Of a stretch of DNA of 64,000 bases, positions 3,610-35,013 are shown piece by piece; position 1 is the stretch's first letter, and the number at the start of each line of letters is the position of its first letter. Position numbers and translations under genes: made by a program. The notes under the pieces were generated by a model. The model had not been told where the DNA came from. It made no database searches and saw only the letters and a program-made list of their open reading frames with translations. Origin of the DNA: an uncultured Acidobacteriota bacterium (GTDB lineage: Bacteria; Acidobacteriota; Thermoanaerobaculia; Multivoradales; UBA5704); assembly GCA_963770895.1 (NCBI GenBank), contig CAVYRF010000001.1:1632001-1696000 (forward strand), in the 5' to 3' direction.

Positions 3610-5142
3610 TCAGCGGTTGCGGCTTGCGGCCGGCAGCTTGCCGTGGGCCGGCAGCCGGTAGAGCCCGTAGCTCGCGTTGCTGGCCATCAGCAGGTCGGGA
3701 CCCGGCAGCAGAGCGGCGGGCGGCGCGGGCGGGCGGCGCCAGGCGAGCTTGCCGACCAGCAGGCAGTCCTCGCGCGAGGCTGCGCCGGTTGCCGCACCGG
3801 CCGGCCCCGGCTCTTTGACTTCGAAGCCGTCCATCACCTCGAGGATGAAGCGCTCGCTGTAGGCCAGCTGAAAGGTCGAGCGGACCTCCCGGCAGCCGCC
3901 GGCGGCCGCCGGCTCCAGGGCGCTCAGGAAGCGCTGATCGCCCGGCATCCGGTCGCTGGTCAGCACGCGCGCCAGGAAGCGCGCCTCGCAGAGCGCCAGC
4001 GGCACCACCACCAGGCCGACCATCGTCGCGGCGCGCCAGCCGGTCGGAGCGCTGTCCGCCAGGAACAGAGCGCTGCCGGCACCGAGCACGGCGAGCGCCG
4101 GATAGATGGGGTCGAGGTACCAGTGGTGCTGCGTGCGGACGAACGAAACGATGAGCAGCGGCACCGCCACCCAGAGGACGAGCAGCGCCACCACCCGGCC
4201 GCGGCGCAGCCGCGCGCCCAGCTTGCCGCGCAGGCTCAGGACGGCGGCGGCGGCGATGACCAGCGGCCAGGGCGCGGCGCGGTCGAAGAGCGCCTCCACG
4301 TAGCTGAGCGGCGACGAGGTGCTCTTGTCGACGATCGTCGTCGAGCGATCGACCACGTCCTCGCGCACCATCCGCAGGAGAAAGTCCGCCGAGCCGTCGG
4401 CGTGCCAGCGCGCCCACACCCAGCCGCCGACGATCGCCGCGAAGAGCGCCGCGGCGGCCAGGCAGGGGAGCAGCCGCTGGCGCCTCCACGAGCCGCTCCA
4501 CACGATGTCGCCGCACGCGACCAGCGCGATCGGCAGGATCGCGAAGCTCTTGAGCAGGAAGCCGCAGGCCAGCAGCAGCGCGATCGGCACCACGCGCCAG
4601 GACGCCGTGCCCAGCTCCGGCAGCTGCACCGCCACCAGCGTCAGGATCAGCGTCAGACAGGCGTCGAAGTCGCCGCTGCGCGCCCCATGGTGACTGAGCC
4701 AGCCGTAGGACGTCGACACGATCAAGCCCGCCACGATCGCCACGCGCAGGCTGAACCATCGCCGCGCCCAGTACAAGGTCGTCCCCGTCACCGCCAGCGC
4801 GCACAGCGCCGAGGGCAGGCGCAGCGCCAGGGCCGAGCCGCCGAACAGAGCGAAGGACATGGCCATCAGCCAGTAGCCGAGCGGCGGCTTGAGGGCCCAC
4901 AGCTCTTTGTTCCCCGCATAGGTGGTGACGACATACGAGTGGTGCTGCTGCATCTCGTAGGCGGTCACGCCGTAGCGGGCCTCTTCGAAATCGTTGATCT
5001 TGGCGTTGCCCAGCGCCAGGAAGAGATTGCAGGCGGCAAGCGCCAACACCAGCCCGACGCACAGCCGAGGCCGCCGAGCCAGGAATGACGCGGTTGGCTC
5101 GATCGGCACGGCGCCCACGTCGCTGCTTGCCTCGCTGGTCAC
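3610..5142 (-). CDS. ArnT/PMT family (GT-C, GT39/GT83-like) membrane glycosyltransferase
   Basis: Multi-TM; EEARY, KPPLGYWLMA, ALRLPSAL motifs typical of ArnT/PMT_2. Confidence 0.85.
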   Translation of the reverse strand: MTSEASSDVGAVPIEPTASFLARRPRLCVGLVLALAACNLFLALGNAKINDFEEARYGVTAYEMQQHHSYVVTTYAGNKELWALKPPLGYWLMAMSFALFGGSALALRLPSALCALAVTGTTLYWARRWFSLRVAIVAGLIVSTSYGWLSHHGARSGDFDACLTLILTLVAVQLPELGTASWRVVPIALLLACGFLLKSFAILPIALVACGDIVWSGSWRRQRLLPCLAAAALFAAIVGGWVWARWHADGSADFLLRMVREDVVDRSTTIVDKSTSSPLSYVEALFDRAAPWPLVIAAAAVLSLRGKLGARLRRGRVVALLVLWVAVPLLIVSFVRTQHHWYLDPIYPALAVLGAGSALFLADSAPTGWRAATMVGLVVVPLALCEARFLARVLTSDRMPGDQRFLSALEPAAAGGCREVRSTFQLAYSERFILEVMDGFEVKEPGPAGAATGAASREDCLLVGKLAWRRPPAPPAALLPGPDLLMASNASYGLYRLPAHGKLPAASRNR

Positions 5143-5329
5143 GAGGTCGAGCGTACCGTCGCGCTACGGCAGTCCACCTGCACGTCGTCGACTCGGAGCA
5201 AGAGCTGCGCCAGCCCTGTGCGCGCGAGGCCGGTAGAGCCACCGTATGGCGCCCGGTCGTCGCCTCGCACGGACGACTCCGTCCTCGTTGGAGACCGCCG
5301 GTCGCAAGCGCCTGCCGGGCGAGCCGGGT

Positions 5330-8254
5330 TCAGGTGCGCGTCGAAGGCGGCGTCGCGCGCCGCCACGCGCGGCGATGGTGGGCGGCGGCCAGGAGGCCGA
5401 GAAGCAAGGCCGCGGCCAGCGCCGCGGTGAGCGCGAGCGGCCGGGCTTGCAGCGCGAGCCAGCCGCGCCCGCCGGGAAGCGGCACGAAGTCGCCGTCGCC
5501 GAGCACCACGACCCCGGACCAGGCGCCGGCGGGAGCGCCGGCCGCGATGCGGTCCCGCTGTGCCGCGGCGAGCGCCGCGCTCAGGCTGGCCCCCTCCGCG
5601 AGGTGGTGGTAGAAGCCGTCGAACAGCGCCGCGGCCTGGTCGTCCCACTGCGACCAGAGGGTGCCCAGCACGGCCTTGGCGCCGGCCTGAAAGAAAGCGC
5701 GCGCGAGGCTCAGCACTCCCTCTCCGTGCAGCAGCTTGCCGCGGGCGGTGGCGCAGGCCGACAGCACGACGACGGGGCTGTCGAGGCGCAGACCGACGAT
5801 GTCGTTCAGCCTCAGCAGGCCGTCCTGCTTCGATCTGTCGGCGCCGGGCGAAAGCCAGATGCCCGAGCTCGCCGGCTCCTGCTCGTCGATCCAGGTGTGG
5901 GTGGCGAAGTGCAGCAGGCCGAACGAGGCGAGCCGCGGGTGCGCCTGCAGCACGACGTCTTCCGAGACCGCCGCCCCCACCCGCTTCTCGCCGCCCAACC
6001 AGCGCGCCACGGAGTCGGCTTCCCGCGCCGCATAGGGGAGCGAGGCGAGCAGCGTCGCGGCGGCCTCGCCCAGGCTCTTCTGCGCCGTGTCGTCGGGCGC
6101 CGCTGGAGCGGCCAGGACCAGGGCTGGGCGATCGGCGGGCGCCGGGAGCTGGCCGCGCCAGCGGCGCCACAGGGTGGCGGAGGGAGCCTCGCTGAAGCGA
6201 TATCGCAAAGCGAGCGGCGCCTCGCCGGCCGACCGGCGCAGCGCCGCGAGCGGGACGCGGTACAGCTCGTCGTCGGGGATCACGATCAGGTGCTCGATCC
6301 ACGGCGGCAGATCGGCGAGCGCGCTTGCCAGGGTCCGGCGGTAGATCTCGGCGGCGGCCTCCGCCTCGCCGCGGTCGGTGGGGGCTGCCGCGGCGGCGTC
6401 TTGGCGGTCCGCCCGCCCGCGGTTGGTCGCCGCCGCCCCCTCGACCGGCGCCAGGAGCTCGACGAATCGGCGTACCGCCTGGCGCAGCGCGCCGCGGTCC
6501 GCATCCTTCAGGGCATAGGCGATGGGCGGCGCGTCGCGGGTCGCCACCAGCAGCCAGGAGCCGCCGCCGAAGTCGCCCCGCCAGTCCTTCCAGGGGGCGA
6601 TCTGAAACGCCAGCAGCGCCTCGTTTCTGGCGAGGCTGCTCCGCACCTGGCGCAAGGTCGCGAACTGCCCGGCGCCGCCCGGCGGCGGGGCGGCGGCGGG
6701 TGGGTTCGCGCGCTGGGCGGCGAGCTCGCGCCCGGCGCGCTCGATCGCGGCGGCGTCCTGGAGCGCGTTGGCACGTTCGCCTTCTGGGACGGCGGGGTCG
6801 TGGAGGCGCGCCTGGATCCGCTGCCGGCTCTCGTCGATCTGGTCGGCCCGGTGCTGCCAATGCTCCGCCGAGAGGGGTGTCGCCCCGGCGCGCTGAAGGG
6901 TGTCGAGCAGACTCCGGGCGCGCAGGCGCTCGGTCACCAGAAAGGCTTGCTCGAGCCAGCGGTCATCGTGGGTTTTCGACCATGCCGTGAAGAAGGTTCC
7001 GGCGAGCCAGGTATAGTCGTCGGACCACACCGAGAAAAGGCCGGCCTGGCTCGACCGGTTCTGAGCGCTGCGCAGATCTTCGATGGTGCCGAGCCCCTTG
7101 ACCAGCTCGTCGGCGCCCGCGATGGACGCACCGGCCGCCCAGGCGACGCGCATCGCCGTTCCCTCGACCGGGGCGCGAGCCCACGGGGTGTCGCCTGCCA
7201 GCCTGACGGCTTTCTTCACCGCGTCCTTCGCCTGGTCCGGCGCGCGCTCGGCGAGCTGCCGCGCCTGGGCATCGAGGCAAATCCCCTGGTGCGGCGCGTC
7301 GGCAGCATCGCTCCGGCAGCGGCCGACCTGATCGCGACCCTCGGCGTCGCGCAGCAAGCCCGCCAGGGCATAGTGCGCATCGACGGCATTGCCTGGATCG
7401 CCAGCTTGCTCGGTTGCCAGCGCAGCCCGCAGCATCAAAGCGACCGCGGCGGAGCGCTGGGTGTCGTCATCCGGCTGCTCCACCAATTTCTCGATCGCCA
7501 TCCGCGCCAGCCCGTAGAGGGCGCCGGCCGCGGCTCTGCGGTCGTTGGTGTCGAGCGCGATGTGCTGGCATTCGTCGTACTGCTGCGCAGCGCGGTCGAA
7601 GAGGCCGAGCTCGGCGCTGATGTTGCCCTGCATGTTCAACAGGGTCTCGTGGAGGTCACGCGCTTTCCAACTGGTATCCCCTGGCGCGATCCACGTCGCG
7701 GCCTGCTCCAGGTGGCGGGCCGCGGCGTCGAGGTTCAGGCCGGCAGCGAACAACTCTTTCGCCGTTTCGATCTCGTCGTCAGCGTACAGCAGCCGATCGC
7801 TTGCCGCGGCCGCAACGGCATGTGCACGGCCGCGTTCGAACTGCGCTTCATCGACATGACGCCAGTTCAGGACATAGACCAGGTCGTCGCGTGCCTGGAC
7901 CTCGCCGCTGGCGTCCCGGTCGGCCGCGAACAAGGCGGCGGTCTTGCGAAAGGCGGATTCCCAATGCCGGTTGGACTTCGGATCGGCCCACAGGAGCAGT
8001 CGCCAGAGGTCGAGGTAGGCCCAGTGACAGCCGGGGAAGCGAACGTGCAGGGTGGCTAGCCGCCTGCTGGCCGACCGCCAATCGCCGCTCTTGCCCTGGG
8101 CGTAGAGGTCTTCGGCCGCCTGCTGGCAGCCGGGCCGCGTCACAGCTTGTGGGTCGGAGGCACCATTTACAGGTGCGGAGGCCGCGGCGGGGACCGGAGC
8201 AGCGCGCCACAGGGAACAGGCAATCGCAAGGGCTGTCGCTGCCCGGCGGCGCAC
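5330..8254 (-). CDS. Exported TPR-CHAT (caspase-like) protease with C-terminal membrane anchor
   Basis: N-terminal signal-like segment; helical repeats; ERLRARSLLD, IVIPDDEL, LLHFATH, VVLSAC, GEGVLSLARAF, LW motifs; hydrophobic C-terminus followed by basic residues. Confidence 0.88.
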   Translation of the reverse strand: MRRRAATALAIACSLWRAAPVPAAASAPVNGASDPQAVTRPGCQQAAEDLYAQGKSGDWRSASRRLATLHVRFPGCHWAYLDLWRLLLWADPKSNRHWESAFRKTAALFAADRDASGEVQARDDLVYVLNWRHVDEAQFERGRAHAVAAAASDRLLYADDEIETAKELFAAGLNLDAAARHLEQAATWIAPGDTSWKARDLHETLLNMQGNISAELGLFDRAAQQYDECQHIALDTNDRRAAAGALYGLARMAIEKLVEQPDDDTQRSAAVALMLRAALATEQAGDPGNAVDAHYALAGLLRDAEGRDQVGRCRSDAADAPHQGICLDAQARQLAERAPDQAKDAVKKAVRLAGDTPWARAPVEGTAMRVAWAAGASIAGADELVKGLGTIEDLRSAQNRSSQAGLFSVWSDDYTWLAGTFFTAWSKTHDDRWLEQAFLVTERLRARSLLDTLQRAGATPLSAEHWQHRADQIDESRQRIQARLHDPAVPEGERANALQDAAAIERAGRELAAQRANPPAAAPPPGGAGQFATLRQVRSSLARNEALLAFQIAPWKDWRGDFGGGSWLLVATRDAPPIAYALKDADRGALRQAVRRFVELLAPVEGAAATNRGRADRQDAAAAAPTDRGEAEAAAEIYRRTLASALADLPPWIEHLIVIPDDELYRVPLAALRRSAGEAPLALRYRFSEAPSATLWRRWRGQLPAPADRPALVLAAPAAPDDTAQKSLGEAAATLLASLPYAAREADSVARWLGGEKRVGAAVSEDVVLQAHPRLASFGLLHFATHTWIDEQEPASSGIWLSPGADRSKQDGLLRLNDIVGLRLDSPVVVLSACATARGKLLHGEGVLSLARAFFQAGAKAVLGTLWSQWDDQAAALFDGFYHHLAEGASLSAALAAAQRDRIAAGAPAGAWSGVVVLGDGDFVPLPGGRGWLALQARPLALTAALAAALLLGLLAAAHHRRAWRRATPPSTRT

Positions 8255-8394
8255 GCTAAGATTCTACATCAAATGGGTTACAACCTTCCATGGAACCGGC
8301 GGTCGGAGCAAGCGACGCCGGCGGAAACCCCCTGGGAGGGGGGCCGCCGGCGCCGCCGCAGCCGATCCTGTTGCCTGCCGCCGGACTCGCGGTG

Positions 8395-8523
8395 TCACTC
8401 CTCCAGTTGGCCCCCCGGCGGGCCGGTTTCGACCGGCGGCGTCGCACATTGGATGCCGACCTCGCCGCTGACTGTCATCTGGTACGTGTCCTGATCGTTC
8501 GAGGAATCATCTGTATTTGCCAT
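8395..8523 (-). CDS. 42-aa acidic micro-protein MANTDDSSNDQDTYQMTVSGEVGIQCATPPVETGPPGGQLEE
   Basis: Strong RBS AGAAAGGAG upstream of ATG; co-oriented within the ECF-CHAT cassette. Confidence 0.65.
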   Translation of the reverse strand: MANTDDSSNDQDTYQMTVSGEVGIQCATPPVETGPPGGQLEE

Positions 8524-8546
8524 GAAGGATCTCCTTTCTTTCTCGC

Positions 8547-8771
8547 TCAGGATTCCAGGCTCTGCTGGGGCGCAACGGTCTTGCACTCGGCCGCGGCCGG
8601 CGGGATCCGGCGCTTTGGGCGGGTGATCTTCACTCCGAAGTTCCAGAACAGGCTGAGGCTGAAGCCCCTTCTGCGTGCGGGGACTGGCTGCGCCCGGACC
8701 GCTCGCGCGGGAGGCTGGGGGGGATCGAGCTCGGCGATATCGACCCGGCTGAATCGGTCCTCGTGCGGCAT
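8547..8771 (-). CDS. 74-aa basic/Pro-rich micro-protein (MPHEDRFSRVDIAELDPP...)
   Basis: RBS AAAAGGAG upstream of ATG; fills the gap between anti-sigma and the 42-aa ORF. Confidence 0.55.
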   Translation of the reverse strand: MPHEDRFSRVDIAELDPPQPPARAVRAQPVPARRRGFSLSLFWNFGVKITRPKRRIPPAAAECKTVAPQQSLES

Positions 8772-8953
8772 GGTCTCTCTCCTTTTCACGGTTCACCTCT
8801 CAGTGATGGTCTCCGCGGTGTCGGCCGGCGGCCGGCCTTGTCTCCGGCGGGCCACGCTCCCTCGATCTGTCCGCTTCCTACTAGACGAAGCGCAAGGCGC
8901 GATCCCCTCAGGCCCGCGCGTGACGGCGAGGCGCCCAGAGGACGGCAAGGGAT

Positions 8954-9682
8954 TCAGTGGACGGAAAACGTTTCGATTTGCGAGGTGGCGCTCAGGCGGC
9001 CGGGACCTGTCGCCGTCACCTGCCAGCTCAGCACCGATCCCGCGGGGAGTTTGGCGAGCGCAGTATCGGGCACCTGGTAGACCTTGACCGCCAGCTCTGT
9101 AGCTTGGGCCACGACGACGCCGGACCGCGTGCGCACGACGACGTCGTAGAGCACGCCGGGCGGGCCCTTCCAGGAAAGCAAGCAGCTGGAGCGGGAGGGG
9201 GCCTGGCAGCCGGTCTCCATCAGCAGCAGCGGACGGGGCGCCAGAGGCAGACGGGGCGCCGCGGCCGGCGCCAGCCCGCCGCGCAGGGCCGGCGCCGGCG
9301 CCGGAGCGCGCAGAACCTGGACGCCGATGAGGAGGGCGGCGGCCATGCCGGACGCCGCCACCCAGGCCGCCAGGGGGCGGCGGCGTCGCCGCTCCGGCTC
9401 GGGCGCCGCGGCCGTGTCGGCGCCCTGGTCCGCCTGTGGGTGCTCGAAGGCGACGGCGAGCCGCCATTCCTCCGTGCAGGCGGGGCAGGCCGCGAGATGA
9501 TCGATCACGTGGCGCAACGCATCGGCCGGCAGCTCGCCGTGCACCGCCAGCCAGATCGATTCTGGCGCCGGGCAGTCGGCGGGCACCGGCGGCTGGGATG
9601 GGCCGCCGGCAAACGCCCGGCGCAGCGACTCCAGATCGCCGCCGTCGCCCCTGCTGCCGCGGACGCCGCCGTCGCCGCTCAT
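8954..9682 (-). CDS. zf-HC2 (ZAS) anti-sigma factor, single TM plus extracytoplasmic beta domain
   Basis: HLAACPAC zinc motif, TM segment; ATGA overlap with the upstream sigma factor stop. Confidence 0.85.
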   Translation of the reverse strand: MSGDGGVRGSRGDGGDLESLRRAFAGGPSQPPVPADCPAPESIWLAVHGELPADALRHVIDHLAACPACTEEWRLAVAFEHPQADQGADTAAAPEPERRRRRPLAAWVAASGMAAALLIGVQVLRAPAPAPALRGGLAPAAAPRLPLAPRPLLLMETGCQAPSRSSCLLSWKGPPGVLYDVVVRTRSGVVVAQATELAVKVYQVPDTALAKLPAGSVLSWQVTATGPGRLSATSQIETFSVH

Positions 9683-10221
9683 CGCGCCACCCCCGCCGCC
9701 TCGAGGCAGCGGCGCAGATCCGCCAGGCCGCGGTAGACCAGGTTCTCCGCCCGCTTGGGGCTCCAATTCAGGAGCTGGGCGGCCTCCGGCACGCTGTGTC
9801 CCACCAGGTGGAGCGTCACCGCCAGCCGCCGGGGCCGGACCAAACGGGCCAGGCAGGCGCGAATCGCCCGCCCCTGCTGCCGCGCCGACGTCGTCTGCTC
9901 GGGATTCGCGGCAGGTGTCGAGTGCTGCGTGTCGACCCCTTCGTCTTCCAAGGGGACCTCCCGCCTGCGCTTGAGCCGGCGGATCTCGTCGACCAGGGCG
10001 CTATAGGCCGCCTTGCGGAGGTACGCGGTGGAGAGGTCGGTGCTCCCGTCGCCGCGGCGGCAGACTTCGACGACGCGCAGCAACGCGACCTGCACGACGT
10101 CCTCGGCGCTCGCGGCGAGCCACGGCGGGCAGATGCTGGCGACGGCGCGCGTCAAGGCGGCGCGCAGGGCGACGAGATCCCCCTCCGCGATGGGGGAGGG
10201 GCCATGAGGCTGGCGCTCCAC
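9679..10221 (-). CDS. ECF sigma-70 factor (start approximate)
   Basis: AEDVVQ region 2, AYSALVDEIRR, region 4 HTH SVPEAAQLL...AENLVYRGLADLR. Confidence 0.9.
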   Translation of the reverse strand: MERQPHGPSPIAEGDLVALRAALTRAVASICPPWLAASAEDVVQVALLRVVEVCRRGDGSTDLSTAYLRKAAYSALVDEIRRLKRRREVPLEDEGVDTQHSTPAANPEQTTSARQQGRAIRACLARLVRPRRLAVTLHLVGHSVPEAAQLLNWSPKRAENLVYRGLADLRRCLEAAGVAR

Positions 10222-10659
10222 GTGTGCCGGCTCGATCGTACGGTTCGTATAATTCGAGGATTCGCTGAAGTCTACCACGGCCACGGCGTGGGCGACCCGG
10301 ACGCGCCGCGAATTCGCCGCCAGGACCCTCACCCGGCGCGAACGCAGCCGCAGGTCGAGGCCGGGCCGCGGCCGGGGAGCGGCGGCACATTTCACCGCCT
10401 CGGATGGACCCTGCCGCAGGCTCGCGCCAGCCGCAGCCGGTCCTCCGCCATCTGGTTCCAGTGCGCCGTCGTACGCCATCGCATCGATCCTCCGCGCAGG
10501 AGCGCCCGCCCGGCAACGCGGCGGGCCTCATCCCGCCGCCGCCGGCAATCCGCCGTCGTCCTCACAACGAATGTCGATGGCCTTTCCCCTCAAGGCGCCG
10601 CGACGCAAGGCGCTGGCGACGCACCTGCTGTACGATGGCTCAGTTCCAAAGGAGAATGG

Positions 10660-11571
10660 GTGCGACCTATCGCGGCGATCGATATCGGCAGCAATACCGT
10701 CCATCTGCTCGTCGGCAAGGCGCGCAAGGGCGGCACGGTCAAGCGCATGGTGTCCGAATCCGAGCTGCTGGAGCTGGGCCGCGAGGTCGAGCGCCACGGG
10801 CGGATTCGCGGCAAGAAGGTGGCCCAGCTCGAAAAGGTTCTCCGCCAGCAGATCGACAGCGCGCGCAAGGCGGGTGCCGAAGAGGTGCTGATCGCCGCCA
10901 CCAGGGCGATGCGGGCCGCCAGCAACGGCGCCGACGTGGTGCAGAAGCTGGAGCGAGCGCTCGACGTACCGGTGCGCCTGCTGTCTGCCGAAGCGGAGGC
11001 GCGGATTGCATTCATGGGCGCGGCGCCGGACCTCCACCCTGCCGGCGCGCAGGTGCTCATCGACAGCGGCGGCGCCTCGACCGAGGTCACGCTCACTTCC
11101 GGCCGCAGGCGCCGGGCCGCCGCGTCGATGCCGATCGGCGCCTCGCTGCTGTGCGAACACCTCCAGGGCGACCCGCCCGGTCCCCTGGAATGGGCGCAGC
11201 TTTCCTTGCGCCTGGCGGACGCTCTCAAGCTGCTCCCCGCCGCGCCGCGGCCGGCGCGCGCCCTGGCGGTCGGCGGCACCGCGCATCGGATCGAGGAGCT
11301 GCACGGCGCGGGCCGCGGTGAGGCGGTCGGCCTGCCTGACCTGGAGCGCATCGCGCAACGCCTGCTTCGCCACCCGGCGCGCAAGATCGCCCGCGCCGCG
11401 GGCCTGCAGAGGAAAAAAGTCATCCTGCTCGCGGCGGGAACGCTGGTCCTGCATGCGATTCTCAACCACTACAGCCTGGAAGCCCTCAACATCGGCCATC
11501 ATGGCCTTCGCGACGGCATGATCGCCGCCTTCCAGCGCGCCGGCGGCAATTGGTGGCGCCTCAAGCGCTGA
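10660..11571 (+). CDS. Ppx/GppA family phosphatase (short form, no HD domain)
   Basis: IAAIDIGSNT, ATRAMR, EAEA, DSGGASTE, GGT, GLRDG motifs; GTG start after GGAG. Confidence 0.9.
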   Translation: MRPIAAIDIGSNTVHLLVGKARKGGTVKRMVSESELLELGREVERHGRIRGKKVAQLEKVLRQQIDSARKAGAEEVLIAATRAMRAASNGADVVQKLERALDVPVRLLSAEAEARIAFMGAAPDLHPAGAQVLIDSGGASTEVTLTSGRRRRAAASMPIGASLLCEHLQGDPPGPLEWAQLSLRLADALKLLPAAPRPARALAVGGTAHRIEELHGAGRGEAVGLPDLERIAQRLLRHPARKIARAAGLQRKKVILLAAGTLVLHAILNHYSLEALNIGHHGLRDGMIAAFQRAGGNWWRLKR

Positions 11572-11858: not shown

Positions 11859-12272
11859 ATGATTACTCGCGAACGCAGGCTTCTTAAAATCGGGATGACC
11901 CTGGCGCTGGCGTTACTGGTGATGGCTCCGCTGGCCAGCTTCGGCGCAGTGGTCGTCGGTATCGGTGTTGCCGCTCCTGGCCCCGGCTACGTGTGGGTGC
12001 CCGGTTACTACAACTACAACGCCTGGGTGCCGGGCGCCTGGGCGCTGCCGCCTTACGCCGGCGCGGCCTGGTACGGCCCGCATTGGGGCTGGTACGGCGG
12101 CCAGAGGGTCTTCGTGCGCGGCTATTGGGGCGGTGGTCCGGGCTTCCACGGCGGCTACGGCTATCGCGGCGGCCCCGCCTTCCACGGCGCCGTCGGGTTC
12201 CACGGCGGCTTCCATGGCGGCGGCTTCCACGGCGGCGGCTTCCACGGCGGTGGCGTCGCGCATCACCGCTGA
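11859..12272 (+). CDS. Secreted YXWGXW-repeat protein with GGFHG repeat tail
   Basis: Signal peptide; PGPGYVWVPGY, AWVPGAW, WYGPHW repeats; C-terminal (GGFHG)n. Confidence 0.85.
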   Translation: MITRERRLLKIGMTLALALLVMAPLASFGAVVVGIGVAAPGPGYVWVPGYYNYNAWVPGAWALPPYAGAAWYGPHWGWYGGQRVFVRGYWGGGPGFHGGYGYRGGPAFHGAVGFHGGFHGGGFHGGGFHGGGVAHHR

Positions 12273-12419: not shown

Positions 12420-15400
12420 ATGGACAAGAGCGAGCCCGATCCGGGGTCCTTGCCCACGGCTGAGCGGCCTACCGAGGCCGCCACCGAGGCGATGCCGTTG
12501 GGTGCATGGGCGGCGCGCCCGCCGGGCACCCCCGCGGCGGCGGCGCCTGACGGTGAGACGGCGACCGCGCCGGCGGTCGGCGACGTCCCGGCCGGCGGGC
12601 AAGATGGCGAAGCCGCGGCGGCGCGAGCCATCGCGGCGGGCGGGCGCTACCGGATCGAAGGGCTGCTGGGGCGAGGCGGCATGGGGTTCGTGTTCCGCGC
12701 CCACGACGGCCGGCTGGGCCGCACGGTGGCGATCAAGGCGCTGGCCGCCTCGGGCGCGGCGGCGGCGGCGCGGTTGGAGCGCGAGGCGCAGCTGCAGGCG
12801 CGGGTCGATCACCCCAACGTCGCCAAGGTGTACGAAACCGGCGAAGCGCAGGGGATGCGCTTCATCGTCATGCAGTTCATCCCCGGCAAGCCGCTCAGCG
12901 CGCTCGCCGAATCGCTGTCGCTCGACGAAAAGGTGCGCCTGGTGCAGCGCGTTGCGGAGGGTGTCCACGAGGCGCACCGCCTGGGTCTGGTGCATAGCGA
13001 CCTCAAGCCGAAAAACGTCCTGGTCGTCGCCGTCGAGCAGGGCGGCTGGCACCCCTACGTGCTCGATTTCGGCATCGCGCGCGAGGTGGCGGCGGCCGGG
13101 ACCGCCGGCGAAGGCGCCACGATCACCGGCACGCCGGCCTACATGGCGCCCGAGCAGGCGCGCGGCGAGCCGCTCGACCGCCGCACCGACGTCTACGCCC
13201 TGGGGGTCATGCTGTTCCGCCTGCTGTCGGGGCGCCTTCCCTACAGGGAGCAGAGCACGCGCGAGACGCTGGAGCGGGTGCTGCACGAACCGGCGCCGCC
13301 GCTGCGCCACGTGGCGCCGGACCTGGAGGCGATCGTCCGGAAGTGCCTGGCCAAGGCTCCTGCCGAGCGCTACGCGACGGCGCGCGGCCTGGCCGACGAC
13401 CTGGTGCGCTGGCTGGACGGCGAACCGGTCCTGGCGCGGCCCCAGACCCGCCTCTACCGGCTGGCGACGCGGGTGCGCAAGAACCGCGTGCTGGTCGCGG
13501 TGTCGCTCGCGGCGCTCGCCGGCGTGCTGGCGGCCTCCGGCTGGGCGGTGGCCGAAAGGCTGCAGACGGCGCGCCGCGCCGAGCTGGCGCAGCGCTTCGG
13601 CCGCGAGGAAGAGCGCTACGAATGGACGCTGCGCGCCGCCTACGAGCTGCCGCTGCACGACACCAGCGGCGAGCGCAACGCGGTCGGCGCGGCGATCGCG
13701 CGGCTGGATCGCGAGGTCCGCGGGCTGAGCCCGGCCCTGCGCGCCCCCGGCGACGCGGCGCTCGGCCGCGGCCTGCTGGCGCTGGGCGACGACGCGCAGG
13801 CGCGGCGCCACCTGGAAGCCGCCTGGCGGGCGGGCAATCGCGCGCCGGAGCTGGCCTACGCGCTGGGCCTGACCCTGGTGCACTCCTACCAGGAGGCGCT
13901 GGCGCGCGCCCGCCTGGCGCGCGACGAAAGCGAACGGCAGCTGGCGCTGGCCTCGGCCCGGCGGCGGCTGCGCGACCCGGCGCTCGCCTATCTGCAGGCG
14001 AGCCGCGGCGGCGACCTGGTGGCCAGCCAATACCTCGAAGCGCTGCTGGCCTACCTGGCGGGCGACTCGGCGACGACGCTGGTCAAGAGCCGCGCGGCGA
14101 TCGCGCGTCTTCCCTGGCTCTACGAGGCGCTGGCACTGCAAGCCCAGGCCTGGCGCGCGCGCACCGAGCGGGCTCCCGACGAGGCGGGGCGCGCGGCGGC
14201 GCTGGCGCAAGCCGAGGCGGCCCTGACCCAGGCGGTGCGGCTGGGCGCCAGCGACGCCTCCCTCTACCTGGGGCTGTGCGAAACCGAAATCGAGCAGCTG
14301 CAGGAAGCCGTCTACGGCACGGGGGTCGGCGTCGCGCCGCTCTGCGATCGCGCCGTCGCCGCCTGCGACGCGGCGCTGCGCGCCGAACCGCGCTTCAGCC
14401 CGGCGCTCGCCGCCAAGGCGGAGGCGCTCACCCTGACGGCGGGATTCGCGCTCGAACACGGCGCCGACCCCGAGCCGCGGCTGCGCCAGGCCGCAGCGGC
14501 GGCCGCCACCGCCATCCGCCAGGCCGGCGGCGACGCCCAGCCGCACCGCGCGCTGGCCGCGGTGTGGAACCTGCGCGCCCGCGCGCTGCGGCACCAGGGC
14601 GGCGACGTGCGCCAGGCCCTGCGGCCGGCGATCGCCAGCCTGGAGCAGGCGCTGCGCTGCGAGCCCGACGACTGGCTGAGCCTGGCCGACCTGGGCAACG
14701 CCCTCGGTCAGCGCGCCATTCAGGAGGGGGAGCACGGCGAGGACGCGGCGGCATCGTTCGCGGCGTCGGTCGCGGCGCTGGAGCGCTCGGCGGCGATCGA
14801 GCCCAACCTGTACACGACGCGCTTCAACCTGGGCCGCACCTACGCCGATTGGGGAGAGTTCCGGGCCGGTCACGGCCAGGACCCCACCGCGGTCCAGGAC
14901 CAGGCCGTCGCCGCCTACCGCCGCGCGATCGCCATGAGGCCCAGCTTCGCGCAGGCCTACAACAGCCTGGGCGCGGTGCTCTTCTTCCGCGCCAGCCAGC
15001 CACGCCCGGGCATCCAGCCGATGGCGCTGCTCGAAGATGCCCGCGTCGCGCTCGCCAGGTCGATCGCCATCCAGCCGACCTACGCCAACCCGCACTTCAA
15101 CCTGGGGCTGGTCTTCCGCGAGATGGGCAACCTGGAGGACGCCGCCGGCAGCGACCCCTGGCCGCACCTGCGCCAGGCCATCGAGGCCTTCGGCGACGGC
15201 CTGCGCCTCAACCCGAAGATCTTTTTCGCCTACATCGAGCTGGGACGCATCTACGTCATCGGCGGCCGTCACGACGTCAGGCTGCACCGCTCGCCGCTCG
15301 ATTCGACCGCCGCCGCCGTGCGCCTGGCCGAGCGCAGCCTCGCCATGCAGCCCGACGATTTCATGGCGCTCAAGATGCGCGCCGAGGCCCACATGACGGA

Positions 15401-30270: not shown

Positions 30271-33177
30271 TTAGGTCTGCGGCGACGCCGGGGCGGCGGG
30301 AATCCCTTTGCTGCCGTGATCAACCTGCTTGTGCAGATCGGCTCTGACCTGCCAGTCACCGAGCGCGACGAATGCTGCCCAGTATGCCGGCGAGCTCCAT
30401 TCTGTCTCGTCGCGCAGCTCGCGCTGCGCATGGCGCAATGCGTCGGCAGCACGCCGGCCGTGCAGCAACAGGTGAGTGTAGAAGCGGCTCATCAGCTCGG
30501 CTGTGGCCCGGTCGTCGACCTCCCACAGACTCACCACAAGCTGGCTGGCGCCGGCGACGAAGAAGCCGTCGACAAGGCCGACCACCCCTTCACCGCGGAT
30601 CTGTTGGCCCAAAGCCGTTTGGCAGGCTGAAAGGACCACGAGATCGGCAGACAGCCGAAGGCCATAGAGGTCGCGGGAGCGCAGCAGACCGTCACGCGGC
30701 CGGCCGTCGGCCCGATAGAGGGAGAGGAGGAGGCCGGCAAGAGCCGGATCGTCGGCGTCCACCAGGGCATGAGAGGCGAAGTGCAGCAGGTGAAAACCAT
30801 CCAGGCTGCCGCCGGTCACCAGCTCGCGGGTGGCAGCGAAGCCGCTGACGACGGGCACCCCGGGCCGGCCTGCGATGTGGCTGGCAATCGCGGCAATCCG
30901 TCGAGCTTCATCGGCCGCACCGAGGAGGCGGCCAAAGTGCCCGCCGAGGGCTTGCCGGGTCCGTGCGAGAGCTCGGGCCGGATTGCCCAGGGCCTGACCG
31001 TTGGCCTTCGGCCCAGTGCCGAAGCGCGGGTCATCGGTCTCGAACACCGGGTCGGCCACAATTGCCAGCGGCCGCAGCGCCGGGCGCCGGGAGCGCCGAC
31101 GCTGGCGCAACTCGACCAGTGCCGAGGCGGACGGCAGGTGGACGACCTCGTGATCGTCCCCGAGGGCGCGGACAGCGCCAGCTTTTCCAGGCGACAGATA
31201 CAGCGCCGCGAATGGGATGAGATGCAGAGCGCCGTCAGGAATGATGGCAAGCCGAGCCTTCAGGGGAGAGCGAGCCAGAGGAACGAGCACCAGCTCTGAG
31301 AGGTACCGGCAAGCGGAGCGGGCGGCGCTGCGGAAACCGATTCTGTCGCTGAGCGGAAAGAGCCGATGTGCGCTCTGGGCAGCGGCTTCGATCTGAGGTC
31401 CGGCGACCAAGGGAAGAACGTCCACCCCTTGCGCGTCGATTCGCCACAGCCAGCTGCGCTTGGTGCCGAGGGAATAGGCAAGCAGCGTCGTCTTGCTGTC
31501 AAGCTGGGCGAGGATGGCGGCGAGCGTCGCCGGTTGGGCCAGCACCGGCTGAAGCCCGGCATTGCTCGCGTCAGATTCCTGCAGGAGCTCGAACTCGAAC
31601 CGCAGTCGGCGCAGGGTGGCCAGGCGCTGGAGGGCAGGCTCGGAAACTGGTCCCTGAGGTTCCTGGCGGAGGCTCAGATGGTAAATGGAAGAGTTTGTCC
31701 CCGCGGACCTTCCGGTTGTGGCCAAGGCCGCGGATTCGAGTTGCTCGATTTGCCGGCGCAGGAGCAGGCGGCGGGCCTCATCGGCTTGAGCCGGGAGGCC
31801 TGCTGAAGGTGCAGGCGCTGCCAGTAGATCGAGCAGAGACCGAGCACGGGCGCGCTCCGAGACCGCGAAGGCGCGCGCCGCCCAGAGCTGGTGATCGCCT
31901 CGGTTTGGCGCCTCCAGGGCGGCTTCCGCCATCAGGTCCACCAGCTCCCGGTACACGTCCTGCCATCCGCCGAGATAGGTGCCGCGAAGGGATGCCAGAT
32001 GGAGGCTGGAACGCGCCGACTCGACGACGTTCAGGGCGGCCTCGAGCACAGCGATCGCCTCGGTACGCGTGCCGCCGGCGCGCAGGGCCCGCGCCAACTC
32101 CAGGCGCGCCATGACCCGGCCCTCCTGGCCTCCCAGGGCTTCAAATTCCTCCACGGACTGACGAAGAATCGGCACGGCCTTGGCGATTTGCCCCTGGCAG
32201 CGCAGCACAGCCCCGAGGCCAAGGTGAAGGTACGCGGTATGGAAAGGCGACACACCTCCCTTGCGCTGCGATAGCGCCAGCGAGCGCTCCAGATCCTGCC
32301 GCGCCTCGCGGAGGCGGTCGAGGCGGCGGTAAAGCTGAGCCCGTTGTTCCAACGCGATGCACAAGTCGTAATCGGCATTGGCCGCAGTGAGGACCGACAG
32401 AGCATCATCGTAAGTTGTGAGGGCGGCGTCCGGCTGGCCGTCGAGGGCGAGCCCCCAGGCCAGGGAAGCCAGGCTCTGGCCAAGAGTGGTGGTGGCTCCG
32501 GAGCTCCGGTGCAAGGTGACCGCTCGGCGCAGCTCTTCGGCACCCTCACGCAGGCGACCGAGTTGCAACAGCAGCACTCCCCGATTGTGGAGCGCGGCGG
32601 CCTCTCCAGCGAGGTCGCCGAGGCCATGGCGAAGCGCGAAGCATCGGTCGTGAGCGTTGAGCGCCGCGGACGGCAGTCCGCGGGCGGCGAATCCGGCCCC
32701 CAGGTTGTTCCACGCGGTCGCCGCCACGGAAGGAAGACCCGCGGACTCCGCCAGCTCAAGGACCTGCCACTCAACCTGCTCGAGGCCGGCGAAGTCCCCG
32801 AGCTGGAAGAGGACTTCGCCCAGATCGTTCGAGGTCTCGGCGTGCTCCGGAATGCTGCCGTGTTCGGAGAAGGCCCCCCGCGCCTGCTCCAGGGCTCTTC
32901 GGGCCTCCTCCAGACGGCCCTGCCGTCGCAGGTCGAGCCCCAGGCGGCGCCGTGCCCGAGCCTGTTGCAGAGCCGGCGTAGAGCGCGCGTCGCCGGCACG
33001 AGCGGGCCACGTCGTCGGGGCCTCCCGCATCGCCTGGGAGGCCTCGCCTCGATCGCTCGCGGTTACCGGCACGGTCTCAGCTGCCGCTGGTAGCCGAGGA
33101 GTGTGAGCTGGGGAACCGCATCCGACCACGGCGACGGCAAGCCAGCTCACGGACAGCGGACATCGCTTGAGAGTCAC
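30271..33177 (-). CDS. TPR-CHAT protease, probable lipoprotein
   Basis: Lipobox-like AVVGC; TPR repeats; ERARARSLLD, IIPDGALH, LHFASH, LVVLSACQT, GEGVVGL, SLWEVDD, PAYWAAF. Confidence 0.92.
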   Translation of the reverse strand: MTLKRCPLSVSWLAVAVVGCGSPAHTPRLPAAAETVPVTASDRGEASQAMREAPTTWPARAGDARSTPALQQARARRRLGLDLRRQGRLEEARRALEQARGAFSEHGSIPEHAETSNDLGEVLFQLGDFAGLEQVEWQVLELAESAGLPSVAATAWNNLGAGFAARGLPSAALNAHDRCFALRHGLGDLAGEAAALHNRGVLLLQLGRLREGAEELRRAVTLHRSSGATTTLGQSLASLAWGLALDGQPDAALTTYDDALSVLTAANADYDLCIALEQRAQLYRRLDRLREARQDLERSLALSQRKGGVSPFHTAYLHLGLGAVLRCQGQIAKAVPILRQSVEEFEALGGQEGRVMARLELARALRAGGTRTEAIAVLEAALNVVESARSSLHLASLRGTYLGGWQDVYRELVDLMAEAALEAPNRGDHQLWAARAFAVSERARARSLLDLLAAPAPSAGLPAQADEARRLLLRRQIEQLESAALATTGRSAGTNSSIYHLSLRQEPQGPVSEPALQRLATLRRLRFEFELLQESDASNAGLQPVLAQPATLAAILAQLDSKTTLLAYSLGTKRSWLWRIDAQGVDVLPLVAGPQIEAAAQSAHRLFPLSDRIGFRSAARSACRYLSELVLVPLARSPLKARLAIIPDGALHLIPFAALYLSPGKAGAVRALGDDHEVVHLPSASALVELRQRRRSRRPALRPLAIVADPVFETDDPRFGTGPKANGQALGNPARALARTRQALGGHFGRLLGAADEARRIAAIASHIAGRPGVPVVSGFAATRELVTGGSLDGFHLLHFASHALVDADDPALAGLLLSLYRADGRPRDGLLRSRDLYGLRLSADLVVLSACQTALGQQIRGEGVVGLVDGFFVAGASQLVVSLWEVDDRATAELMSRFYTHLLLHGRRAADALRHAQRELRDETEWSSPAYWAAFVALGDWQVRADLHKQVDHGSKGIPAAPASPQT

Positions 33178-33965
33178 CGGTCGAGCTCCACCTCCAACCG
33201 GAAGCTTGCCACCGTCTTGCCGGCGCGGTCTCTGACAAGAAGCTGGTGAGGTCCCTCTGCCAGGTGATCCCGGGGTAGGAACAGCACGAAGACGCCTCCT
33301 TCGCCGGGCATGAGGCCCTGCGACCGGAAGACCTCCGTGTGGCCGCGCCGGATCTCCAGATCGTAGGGCCCGGAGTCCAGCGTGACACCCGGCGCCGCCA
33401 GGGTGAGGACAATTCCTCTGGTGGCGGCAGGAACGACCGTGCGCTCACCGCCGCGCATTACGTCCGTCGCGGTGTCCGAGAGAGCCAGCAGCTCGACGAT
33501 CGGCAGGTTGATTTCGACGGCTCCCCGGGGAGACCCTGGGACGGCGTGGGGGCGCATCTGTCCGACCGCAAGGGCCAGGGCCACTCCTGCAGCGAATGAG
33601 GCCGTGATGGGTAGCCAAGCCCGAGCAAAGGAGCGTCGCGGCTGCGGGGACGGCTCGGCCGCCACCTGGACTCCGGGCAGAATTCCTTCCGCCTGCAGCC
33701 GTGTCCGCATGGCCTGCCAGCGCCGGTCCAGGCCGGCATCGTTCTCGAATGGCGCCTGGCGATCCGCCGGGTCGGGGAAGCGCATCAAGTCGAAGAGCTC
33801 GCTCGCCACGCCGGGGTCCCACGCAGCACGTTCGAGCAGACGCTCGCGCTCGGCTGCGGACAGCTCGCCGGCGTGCAGAGCGATCATCTGGTCGGTTGAC
33901 GGCCGCTCGCCCAACGCTTGCCGGCGCTCGCCAATGATCTCCGCTAGGGTCGTTTTCCAGTCCAT
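33174..33965 (-). CDS. Putative anti-sigma factor (degenerate ZAS region, one TM, periplasmic beta domain)
   Basis: Directly downstream of ECF sigma; LHAGELSAAERERL anti-sigma-like helix; TM WLPITASFAAGVALALAV; GTGA overlap with the CHAT gene. Confidence 0.78.
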   Translation of the reverse strand: MDWKTTLAEIIGERRQALGERPSTDQMIALHAGELSAAERERLLERAAWDPGVASELFDLMRFPDPADRQAPFENDAGLDRRWQAMRTRLQAEGILPGVQVAAEPSPQPRRSFARAWLPITASFAAGVALALAVGQMRPHAVPGSPRGAVEINLPIVELLALSDTATDVMRGGERTVVPAATRGIVLTLAAPGVTLDSGPYDLEIRRGHTEVFRSQGLMPGEGGVFVLFLPRDHLAEGPHQLLVRDRAGKTVASFRLEVELDR

Positions 33966-33979
33966 GGCGCGGCTCTCCT

Positions 33980-34642
33980 TCAACGCAGCAGAAGGACCAT
34001 GATGACCGACAGGACGAAGAGCTCGATCAGTGGATCCAGATTCCGCAGGCGCTGGCGGCCCAACTGGACCTGCTTCTTCACGGTGGCGACAGAAACGCCC
34101 TGCGCCTGGGCGATCTCGTCGATCTTGTAGCCGTACGATTGGAAGAGCACGCACTGGCGCATGCGCTGTGGCAGCTCGTCCAGGGCCGCCCCCAGGTACC
34201 GGCGGCGCTCCGCCGCGAGGGTCAGCTCCAGGGGACTCTTGCCCGGGGCGGCGGGTTCGGCCACGGCCGGTCCGGAGTCGTCGTTCGGCGTCAGGATGTC
34301 GTCCAGAGGGAGCGGGTGGACGGCACTTCTCGAGCGCAAGAAGTTCTTCCAAGTGTTGGACATGATGAACAGAATCCAGGTGTCGAACGACGAGTCGAAG
34401 CGAAAGGACCCGATACCCCGAAAGACCCGCAACAGGATCTCCTGCACCAGGTCATCGACCTCCGACTCTGGGCACCGCCGGATCAGCAGGAGCTTCCTGA
34501 GGGCCGGCTCGTACTCGCGGAAGAGTCGTTCGTAGCACTCCGCGAGCCGGTCTCCGCGCTGGATCTGGCGCACCAGGTCAGGCACCCAGGTCCGATTCCT
34601 GCGCTCTCGCGGTGCCTTTGCGGCGGCGGGCTCCGTGCTCAT
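33980..34642 (-). CDS. ECF sigma-70 factor
   Basis: DDLVQEILL, FRFDSSFDTW, LDELPQRMRQC, IDEIA...SVATVK; RBS GAGGGAGG. Confidence 0.92.
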   Translation of the reverse strand: MSTEPAAAKAPRERRNRTWVPDLVRQIQRGDRLAECYERLFREYEPALRKLLLIRRCPESEVDDLVQEILLRVFRGIGSFRFDSSFDTWILFIMSNTWKNFLRSRSAVHPLPLDDILTPNDDSGPAVAEPAAPGKSPLELTLAAERRRYLGAALDELPQRMRQCVLFQSYGYKIDEIAQAQGVSVATVKKQVQLGRQRLRNLDPLIELFVLSVIMVLLLR

Positions 34643-35013
34643 GCCTCCCTCGAATGGCGGACGGATTGCCACCATAGTCTACTCCGTCCTGTCGCCCGCC
34701 GAGGCCACACGGATACTCCCTTTTCCTCGCGGCTGGGTCTATCCAGGAAATCCCGCGTAGTACGCGGGTCGCCACCCGAGACCGGTTGGCGAACCTGGAG
34801 GCTGCCATGCCAAAGAGCACCGACCTTTCCGAGGCCAGCATCGAAATCCTGAAGGAGGGGGTCGCCGAAGACGTCCAGAAACCCGCCGGCCGTTGCGACA
34901 AGCGCGAGGAGCCCGCTCAGCCGCCCGATCCAACCGCCGAGGCGACGCGAAGCGCCGGCTGAAGGAGGCTTCCTCCGACGATCTGCGGCCTTCACCGCGG
35001 CGACCGTCCTCAT
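34639..35013 (-). CDS. Small putative membrane protein coupled to the ECF sigma gene
   Basis: Hydrophobic segment LSGLLALVATAGGFL; ATGA overlap with the sigma start. Confidence 0.5.
   Translation of the reverse strand: MRTVAAVKAADRRRKPPSAGASRRLGGWIGRLSGLLALVATAGGFLDVFGDPLLQDFDAGLGKVGALWHGSLQVRQPVSGGDPRTTRDFLDRPSREEKGVSVWPRRATGRSRLWWQSVRHSREA

Follow-up and report, generated by a model that had tools for sequence, protein, structure and literature searches.

A sigma factor, anti-sigma factor, small-protein and CHAT protease cassette conserved in soil Acidobacteriota, with structural and architectural likeness to a split form of the myxobacterial DdvA-DdvS switch

In regulated intramembrane proteolysis of the RseA-DegS-RseP type, a site-1 protease removes the periplasmic part of an anti-sigma factor and a site-2 cleavage follows. 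Proteolysis of anti-sigma factors of this type is summarised in the account of DdvA of Myxococcus xanthus (PMC11506125), which is the closest precedent for the gene cassette reported here, located in a 64-kb stretch of DNA (about 69% G+C; hereafter the window) from an uncultured Acidobacteriota bacterium. According to the parts of that account on which we draw, DdvA is an anti-sigma factor with a CHCC zinc domain, a transmembrane (TM) helix and a periplasmic TPR-CHAT portion, with enzyme and substrate in one chain and the signal unknown; it has been proposed, not shown, to be its own site-1 protease, and truncated DdvA without TPR-CHAT undergoes RseP-dependent degradation (PMC11506125). [quoted passage not shown] A search for the fused architecture by the authors of that account brought up DdvA-like proteins in Myxococcota and in a single Comamonas; its text nowhere names Acidobacteriota, and it places only a subset of DdvA-like pairs near defence systems (PMC11506125). 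In the type III-E CRISPR craspase, the TPR-CHAT protein Csx29 is reported to cut Csx30, controlling an ECF sigma factor (PMC10028731). Sigma factors of the ECF54 group are reported to have carboxypeptidases, subtilases and CHAT proteins encoded nearby and to lack an anti-sigma factor (PMC8999054).

The cassette comprises five co-directional genes on the minus strand between positions 10221 and 5330 of the window, encoding an ECF sigma factor, an anti-sigma factor, the products of two very short open reading frames (micro-ORFs) and a CHAT protein. Whereas DdvA is a single chain, the TPR-CHAT part is here a separate polypeptide with its own predicted signal peptide and C-terminal TM anchor, and a zinc-binding anti-sigma (ZAS) domain, a TM helix and a periplasmic TPR-CHAT part are not joined in one chain. 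We regard the cassette, which is conserved in soil Acidobacteriota, as a split version of the DdvA-DdvS switch, the likeness being one of structure and architecture. Its features, with lengths in amino acids (aa) or nucleotides (nt) and with Shine-Dalgarno sequences abbreviated SD, are as follows.

9679..10221, minus strand: ECF sigma factor, 180 aa from a GTG at 10221 (start uncertain), assigned by Pfam and NCBIfam
8954..9682, minus strand: single-pass zinc-finger anti-sigma factor (zf-HC2, 23 bits, cut-off 22.2)
8884..8910, minus strand: bipartite ECF-promoter-like box, TGAGGGGATCG-N10-TTCGTC, 44 nt past the anti-sigma stop and ~110 nt before micro-ORF1
8547..8771, minus strand: micro-ORF1, 74 aa, with the motif RRGFSLSLFWNFGVKITRPKRR and a strong SD, AAAAGGAGAG
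8395..8523, minus strand: micro-ORF2, 42 aa, with the C-terminal tail ..QCATPPVETGPPGG.. and a strong SD, AAAGGAGA
8312..8356, minus strand: GC-rich hairpin (13+6 bp) in the micro-ORF2/CHAT gap, in a terminator-like position, with 3 T in its 10-nt tail
8261..8266, minus strand: -10-like box TAGAAT, 6 nt 5' of the CHAT GTG at 8254, which has no SD
5330..8254, minus strand: TPR-like/CHAT cysteine protease, 974 aa, predicted to be exported and C-terminally membrane-anchored, with His786 and Cys834

The anti-sigma ATG overlaps the sigma stop as ATGA (9682..9679), and the anti-sigma and CHAT genes are separated by 700 nt that include the two micro-ORFs. A preliminary description of the locus had given this gene order, with the ATGA coupling, and every element lies where it was placed, on the minus strand.

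A one-genome-per-species scan returned 249 confirmed stretches, the best 80 of which yielded the 75 loci used for neighbourhood counts, nearly all of them from Thermoanaerobaculia, Holophagales or unclassified Acidobacteriota metagenome-assembled genomes. By tblastn with the window proteins, the sigma factor was recognised in 43 of the 75 loci and the anti-sigma factor in 44, always upstream of CHAT and on the same strand. These loci hold 88 CHAT genes, and linkage was counted on the 65 that have at least 2.5 kb of upstream DNA. Forty-one carry both sigma and anti-sigma genes directly upstream on the same strand, which bears out the check on neighbourhood conservation that the preliminary description had called for, and one carries only one of the two. 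The linkage of sigma, anti-sigma and CHAT genes is real, not obligatory. The distance from anti-sigma to CHAT is ~300-700 nt in most loci and less than 60 nt in four; genes beyond the module vary between loci, and the gene after CHAT is usually convergent.

The CHAT domain (PF12770) spans residues 633-920 of the window protein (180.5 bits, E 6.3e-53), with the motifs HFATH at 782-786 and LSAC at 831-834; it thus has the His and Cys dyad of clan-CD peptidases, and activity is predicted from it. In the protein collection 328 relatives were found at E <=0.001, and the best 120 of them were aligned with the window protein (121 sequences). All of these 120 are CHAT proteins of ~880-1000 aa, the named ones coming from Thermoanaerobaculia/Acidobacteriota, and the closest are P0002 (78% identical) and P0003 (76%). 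The histidine and cysteine that had been picked out in HFATH and LSAC, His786 and Cys834, are retained in 121/121 aligned members. So too the signal-like start and the C-terminal TM anchor, first noticed in the single protein, turn out to be family-wide: the N-terminus is hydrophobic in 106 of the 109 members covering that end, and the C-terminus is TM-like in 111 of 119, followed by a basic cluster in 110 of those. Cys313 is kept in 118/121 members and Cys326 in 119/121. Because of the signal-like N-terminus, the C-terminal helix with positive charges behind it and the conserved cysteine pairs, CHAT is predicted from its composition to be a periplasmic enzyme tethered to the inner membrane. 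An extracytoplasmic location had been proposed before; terminal composition predicts the same, and with the dyad intact nothing points to a cytoplasmic or inactive protein.

We preferred GTG 8254 as the CHAT start because TAGAAT lies 6 nt upstream of it, an arrangement shared by 39 of 49 CHAT genes of relatives, in which TAnnnT stands 6-9 nt before the start (an SD-like motif occurs in 2/49). This pattern suggests a leaderless CHAT mRNA made from its own promoter. The public gene call (P0001, 937 aa) begins at Val38, 37 codons downstream, so that the signal peptide is lost; N-terminal truncation of this kind also affects several relatives in the collection.

No Pfam TPR model matched the window CHAT protein. 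Against PDB sequences, the family profile matched the LGN/Pins TPR proteins (E 5.5e-8) and, weakly, Csx29 (E 0.0077). An AlphaFold2 (AF2) model from a 35-sequence alignment (predicted local distance difference test, pLDDT, 80.4; predicted template-modelling score 0.77) places 23 helices in residues 43-516, shows the CHAT fold and ends in a helix at 937-967. The label TPR-like stands because of the profile matches and this 23-helix arm, and the modelled order, a helical-repeat superhelix followed by a CHAT domain, would be that of the separase, craspase and DdvA architecture. When the model was compared with the PDB by Foldseek, DdvA came first (8rw5, E 4.6e-12; 8rot, E 1.1e-11), ahead of separases and the Csx29 craspases; global template-modelling scores were low (0.24-0.40), as expected for flexible superhelices. 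PADLOC gave no more than a BovA match (20.6 bits) at the catalytic Cys region.

The sigma factor matches TIGR02937 sigma70-ECF (53.1 bits, cut-off 42.9) and Sigma70_r4_2 (31.8 bits, cut-off 25.7), Sigma70_r2 staying under its cut-off (20.7 bits against 24); regions sigma2 and sigma4 are its only ones, as in the ECF (group 4) class of ~180-200 aa proteins. Its partner has H-x3-C-x2-C beside the sigma gene and then one TM helix, the ZAS layout, for which zinc binding is predicted. Among 31 aligned orthologues, C37, H62, C66 and C69 are each at least 90% conserved, a near-invariant set that resembles the CHCC centre of DdvA as given in the sections consulted (PMC11506125); Arg134, after the TM helix, is also at least 90% conserved, and W171 and Y179 are invariant. 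In the AF2 model (pLDDT 75.9) a helical N-domain bundle is followed by a TM helix (~105-124), a linker and a beta-sandwich (167-240). The linker (~125-165) is modelled as disordered, with pLDDT <50 at 130-139 and 147-150, and the best Foldseek matches of the beta-sandwich are FN3/cytokine-receptor domains (E ~1e-3), the sequence profile giving weak FN3-like matches (E 0.2-0.3). The periplasmic part would on this model consist of a disordered linker and a small FN3-like domain, which differs from the TPR-CHAT ectodomain of DdvA. A search for longer, fused relatives of the anti-sigma factor found none, the sole match being an FN3 protein, which is weak evidence.

DdvA is thus the best structural match of the CHAT model, and the micro-ORFs and promoter-like box of the cassette do not appear in those parts of the DdvA account on which we rely (PMC11506125). 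The precedent put forward in the preliminary description was instead the Csx29/Csx30/sigma system. It holds for the TPR-CHAT fold (Foldseek E 7e-11 to 1e-7) and for the link between a CHAT protease and an ECF sigma factor, and gives way to DdvA as the closer precedent; Csx29 differs in being cytoplasmic and RNA-gated through Cas7-11. The cassette was rightly called CRISPR-independent, because the window has no CRISPR array or cas gene and the CHAT protein reaches 14 bits with the Csx29 model (NF041237), the cut-off of which is 300. No CBASS or CRISPR island of the kind controlled in DdvA-type systems was found among the scanned window ORFs. With ECF54 the cassette shares the genomic association of an ECF sigma factor with CHAT proteins, and differs, by that group's description, in its zinc-finger anti-sigma factor. 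Separases share the helical-repeat arm and the CHAT/caspase-like domain (Foldseek E 3e-11 to 8e-8). Finally, the single-pass anti-sigma factor with a periplasmic part is a likeness to the RseA-DegS-RseP type, whereas the candidate site-1 enzyme here is a caspase-fold cysteine protease, not a DegS-type serine protease, and no site-2 protease gene lies within the cassette.

The theme of a sigma factor, a membrane protein and an exported TPR-CHAT protein recurs within 25 kb in the window, without micro-ORFs, in a second cassette.

30271..34675, minus strand: second, distantly related cassette, with an ECF sigma factor (34675..33980), a TM protein (33965..33174) and a TPR-CHAT protein (33177..30271)

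Its middle gene encodes a 263-aa single-TM protein of no family, with a stop codon that overlaps the CHAT start; there is no micro-ORF gap. The second CHAT protein (968 aa) has a lipoprotein-like signal, judged by the known lipobox consensus, and is without a C-terminal TM helix. Aligned over 601 columns, the two window CHAT proteins are 30% identical (E 1e-29). The plus-strand gene at 35038-35823, which diverges from the second sigma gene, encodes a short CHAT-like protein of 261 aa in which no signal-like start is seen by eye; it matches PADLOC 'chat' (4.4e-8) and SAVED_CHAT (1.2e-5), and Pfam CHAT at E 6.8e-4, below cut-off.

The account that we prefer, tentatively and at somewhat less than an even chance, is that CHAT acts in trans as a periplasmic protease of the anti-sigma factor, and that the micro-ORFs are the immediate, promoter-proximal product of the sigma factor. 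The zinc-finger anti-sigma factor would hold the ECF sigma factor at the inner membrane, and the separate TPR-like/CHAT protease, once exported, would be tethered to the same membrane by its C-terminal helix. By analogy with DdvA and with regulated intramembrane proteolysis, the helical-repeat arm would read a periplasmic cue and CHAT would cut the anti-sigma factor in trans, most likely in the juxtamembrane linker with its near-invariant Arg134; a site-2 protease would then complete cleavage and free the sigma factor. To judge from the position of the motif, the freed sigma factor would transcribe the micro-ORFs from the TGAGGGGATCG-N10-TTCGTC box. With their strong SDs these should be well translated, the hairpin after them limiting read-through into CHAT. 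The micro-proteins, with their Pro-rich C-terminal tail, might in the end regulate the protease, or the sigma/anti-sigma pair, by feedback; this is a best guess and the weakest step of the scheme. On the same analogies, the earlier suggestion that CHAT cuts the anti-sigma ectodomain is plausible.

Several observations weigh against this account. We infer the cleavage of the anti-sigma factor by CHAT purely from analogy, and searches of PDB sequences (CHAT by phmmer, the CHAT profile, the anti-sigma profile and the sigma factor) gave no match to DdvA or DdvS, so that the likeness is one of structure and architecture and does not establish common descent. Neither sigma nor anti-sigma gene is adjacent to 23 of the 65 CHAT genes; in L003, L015, L030 and L031, which account for four of these 23, a full cassette is followed by two CHAT genes in tandem, and the gene concerned is the second of them. 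At least three loci with the full 8 kb of upstream DNA (L029, L041, L047) have no adjacent sigma or anti-sigma gene, yet have a promoter-like box and a small ORF in the place of the micro-ORFs, recognised by profile in L029 and L047 and by eye in L041. Since such sigma-less modules keep the box and the small ORF, CHAT needs no neighbouring anti-sigma factor, and its most constant neighbour is the small ORF rather than the anti-sigma gene. The window micro-ORFs themselves are poorly recognised elsewhere by tblastn (micro-ORF1 in L002 and L008 only, 2/75 loci; micro-ORF2 in L008 only, 1/75), and a small-ORF profile of the main clade did not recover micro-ORF2. The micro-proteins have no signal peptide and CHAT is predicted to be periplasmic, which leaves a direct meeting of the two unexplained; they may act in the cytoplasm instead, on the sigma factor, the zinc domain or the short basic CHAT tail. 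Lastly, the box is assigned to the adjacent sigma factor by position only, an inference to be set against its rarity upstream of sigma genes. It precedes the micro-ORFs, which fits CHAT and the micro-ORFs as output at least as well as input, so that the micro-ORFs, and possibly CHAT, may be sigma output rather than only trigger.

The last point leads to the strongest alternative, possible though on balance unlikely: the FN3-bearing anti-sigma factor would sense the cue with the help of other proteases, and the micro-ORFs and exported CHAT would be the regulon of the sigma factor, acting as envelope effectors, with one to several paralogous CHAT modules per genome. The distribution of the box, of consensus GTGAGGGGATCG-N10-TTCGTT across loci, is what speaks for it. 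In its relaxed form the box lies at most 900 nt upstream of 52 of 73 CHAT genes, before the small ORF/CHAT module and also where sigma and anti-sigma genes are not nearby, and it is present in divergent loci too. There are 94 relaxed matches in 1.08 Mb (both strands), 55 of them within 900 nt upstream of CHAT genes and on their strand. Many of the other 39 sit between the sigma and anti-sigma genes of relatives, in some cases as a divergent pair; a box before the anti-sigma gene is expected of a regulon with feedback. Further relaxed matches fall within the reading frame of the sigma gene and are probably due to the conservation of a protein motif there. The strict motif has 38 matches, 36 on the CHAT strand, including loci without sigma or anti-sigma in the available DNA (L023, L024, L029, L039, L041, L047, L053). 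Tandem and paralogous CHAT genes are also common (88 in 75 loci, as given above). On the other side, the apparent -10 box and leaderless start of CHAT itself, behind the hairpin, would make sigma dependence unnecessary, and the fused DdvA, as described in the parts consulted (PMC11506125), together with the overlap of the TM-protein and CHAT genes in the second cassette, argues for a physical partnership of anti-sigma factor and CHAT. Regulation of CHAT as output and cleavage of the anti-sigma factor by CHAT are not exclusive, and a feedback loop would contain both.

A weight matrix found exactly one box site in the window on both strands, at 8910..8884. The two boxes, with a spacer that is fixed in length and not conserved, in a single orientation before genes, would fit an ECF-type promoter as its consensus is generally known. 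The box is read as a DNA promoter and not as an RNA element because the 5' region 8960..8772 is not unusually structured in RNA folding (z +0.83). Autoregulation of the sigma factor through the box was considered and rejected: clear sites upstream of sigma occur in 2 of 44 loci (L064 and L015), and none in the window. The divergent box pairs, in sigma/anti-sigma gaps of ~200-300 nt, have one site toward the anti-sigma gene and one antisense into sigma (L057 6563-6628, L028 6543-6609, L049 6416-6482, L054 6631-6697, L018 5039-5138). In the main clade a second motif, GAGAAAC-N16-CGTAAT, stands ~15 nt upstream of the box (e.g. L018, L026, L042), with ATCAACGACTTACATGGGAACC farther upstream; they could mark the site of a regulator or another promoter, and neither was found in the window.

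In the largest clade the small ORF encodes 38-53 aa, has a strong SD and ends in CC-T-x-P-P-x(1-3)-D-P-G-P. When a profile of this tail was run against 20,301 ORFs (all loci and the window), 28 matched at E <0.01, every one on the CHAT strand and directly upstream of CHAT, including five loci and two second copies outside the training set of the profile. Pro, Gly, Asp and Thr codons change synonymously beneath the conserved tail, which points to selection on the peptide. Small ORFs also precede CHAT paralogues without sigma and anti-sigma genes, and loci that did not pass the strict criteria (L006, L009, L016, L019, L037, L041, L059 and L065) likewise have a small ORF with a Pro-rich end behind an SD. 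Two loci (L012, L014) have tandem duplicate small ORFs with identical tails, and in L063, L066 and L070 the same slot holds a 153-179-aa protein with a hydrophobic N-terminal (signal/TM) segment and a related C..DP.G..GG tail. As for the window, the micro-ORF2 tail QCATPPVETGPPGG aligns in register with the CC-T-x-PP tails of same-slot small ORFs, and the micro-ORF1 motif (R-R/W-x..F-x-F-x-x-K/R-I/V-T) corresponds, when aligned, to the N-terminal half of single 78-148-aa ORFs that have a T-P-P tail at the end (L046, L056, L064, L067, L045, L071, L068). From these two alignments, micro-ORF1 and micro-ORF2 look like halves of one protein that is undivided in relatives, a divergent branch of the small-ORF pattern.

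Neither the window micro-ORFs nor 15 small ORFs taken from the loci matched a Pfam or NCBIfam family above cut-off; the only family matches were weak ones to DUF4307, below cut-off, in two signal-bearing proteins (E 3e-5 in L070, 0.004 in L063). The ESM Atlas gave no usable match for micro-ORF2. In the protein collection, the peptide-family profile drew 44 clusters at E <=0.01, none of them with a name other than 'hypothetical protein'. A complex prediction of CHAT residues 40-930 with micro-ORF2, with an alignment for each, scored 0.00; it was run with no controls and counts neither way. By eye, the juxtamembrane CHAT residues 918-930 (invariant GDGD-x-VPLPGGR/K) resemble small-ORF tails (..GGGDPGPGGPKG, ..DPGPIKG) in L010, L021, L040 and others, and the micro-protein tail might mimic a self-processing site of CHAT.

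One might speculate that the sigma-driven micro-proteins with the [C]C-T-x-P-P...P tail belong specifically to a separase-like protease in the periplasm, serving it as cut signals or, like securin, as pseudosubstrates, and that each of several paralogous modules in a genome thereby closes a feedback circuit of proteolysis; we think this doubtful. As with separase and securin, a small and probably disordered protein is encoded with the protease, the pseudosubstrate idea being drawn by analogy; the compartments differ and there is no sequence similarity.

The same small ORFs could instead be precursors of secreted or modified peptides, with a tail cut or transferred by CHAT as a clan-CD (caspase/legumain-like) enzyme and the sigma pair as regulator. 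The layout is precursor-like (promoter, strong SD, short ORF, hairpin or terminator, then enzyme gene), and the tandem duplicates with identical tails, the conservation of tail residues despite synonymous change and the larger slot proteins with a signal/TM segment and a similar tail are all in keeping with it. Most leader/core precursors, however, have a conserved N-terminal part and a variable C-terminal part, the reverse of what is seen here, and most of the small ORFs have no signal peptide. No conserved transporter or modifying enzyme lies beside the module, and no precursor family was matched in Pfam or NCBIfam. Thus with variable neighbours beyond the module and peptides of no family, these loci do not look like precursor clusters of bacteriocins or of ribosomally synthesised and post-translationally modified peptides, and we consider this explanation improbable.

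The peptide could also be functionless in itself, the ORF serving as a cis-regulatory leader whose Pro/Gly-rich end slows ribosomes, modulates termination at the hairpin and tunes read-through into CHAT. Ribosomes are known to stall at PP, PPG and DPG-type motifs, and such motifs end nearly all the small ORFs. A hairpin of -17 to -41 kcal/mol also follows the small-ORF stop by 9-38 nt in 25 of 25 cases; for the relatives alone, a hairpin at or below -17 kcal/mol lies at 9-37 nt in 24/24 loci, and in 19 of them the 10 nt that follow contain 4 T or more. The window hairpin folds alone at -40.8 kcal/mol, and the 146-nt micro-ORF2/CHAT intergenic stretch has a z of -2.6 against shuffles. A scan of 5000-10700 for consensus terminators and promoters found nothing in the micro-ORF/CHAT gap, where the hairpin is without a T run, and Rfam gave over the same interval only a chance snoU82P match (E 0.42). 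Against a leader, the variable 9-38-nt gap from stop to hairpin would not be bridged by a ribosome paused upstream, the -10 box of CHAT follows the hairpin, non-proline residues (CC, T, D) are conserved too, and the slot also holds 105-179-aa proteins and tandem duplicates. We rate this explanation as very improbable; both it and peptide maturation are less likely than cleavage of the anti-sigma factor by CHAT or CHAT as mere output. That the genes are adjacent without any functional link has next to no chance of being right: the 23 CHAT genes without a sigma pair are all that favours it, and the same order and strand in 41 of 65 despite differing flanks, the second cassette in the window and the fused form described for DdvA in the parts consulted (PMC11506125) speak against it. 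The observed cassette is far beyond chance.

Other genes of the window call for brief mention. A GT39/PMT_2-type (ArnT-like) glycosyltransferase gene (3610-5142, minus strand) lies 187 nt downstream of CHAT; it was considered as a cassette member and rejected, being found by tblastn in 0/75 related loci, and is probably outside the cassette. AHCY and a 137-aa protein were likewise found in 0/75 loci and Ppx in 1/75. The 137-aa protein (11859-12272), with a signal-like start and no Pfam or NCBIfam family, has a C-terminal GGFHGG run that is a 15-18-nt tandem repeat (12141-12254), and adjoins a 1138-aa Ser/Thr kinase with TPRs (12420-15836). Elsewhere are a 1313-aa protein with two kinase-domain matches and PD40/beta-propeller repeats (46810-50751, minus strand) and a Uma2-family putative endonuclease (25670-26230; PADLOC candidate PDC-S03, E 1.2e-35). 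Among the related loci, L041 has a 799-aa LanC-like and kinase protein (4691-7090; class III/IV lanthipeptide-synthetase-like) upstream of its sigma-less CHAT module, the small ORF of which has no cysteine.

A literature search, which did not cover subscription journals, turned up no account of a cassette with a periplasmic TPR-CHAT protein split from its anti-sigma factor, nor of the peptides; within the literature searched, the small-ORF family with its promoter-like box is the part without prior description. The module is common, with the 249 confirmed stretches in the scanned species genomes and 328 protein clusters reported above, and its carriers are nearly all little-studied soil Acidobacteriota. 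Two further things come with the cassette: a family of ~40-aa proteins that has no name yet, and a candidate promoter motif by which the regulon of the sigma factor could be defined. As enzyme and presumed substrate are separate proteins here, a Cys-to-Ala control, a trans-cleavage assay and the mapping of the cut site are straightforward. If the circuit outlined above is true, closed circuits of protease, micro-protein, anti-sigma and sigma factor would act as a family of envelope sensors in Acidobacteriota.

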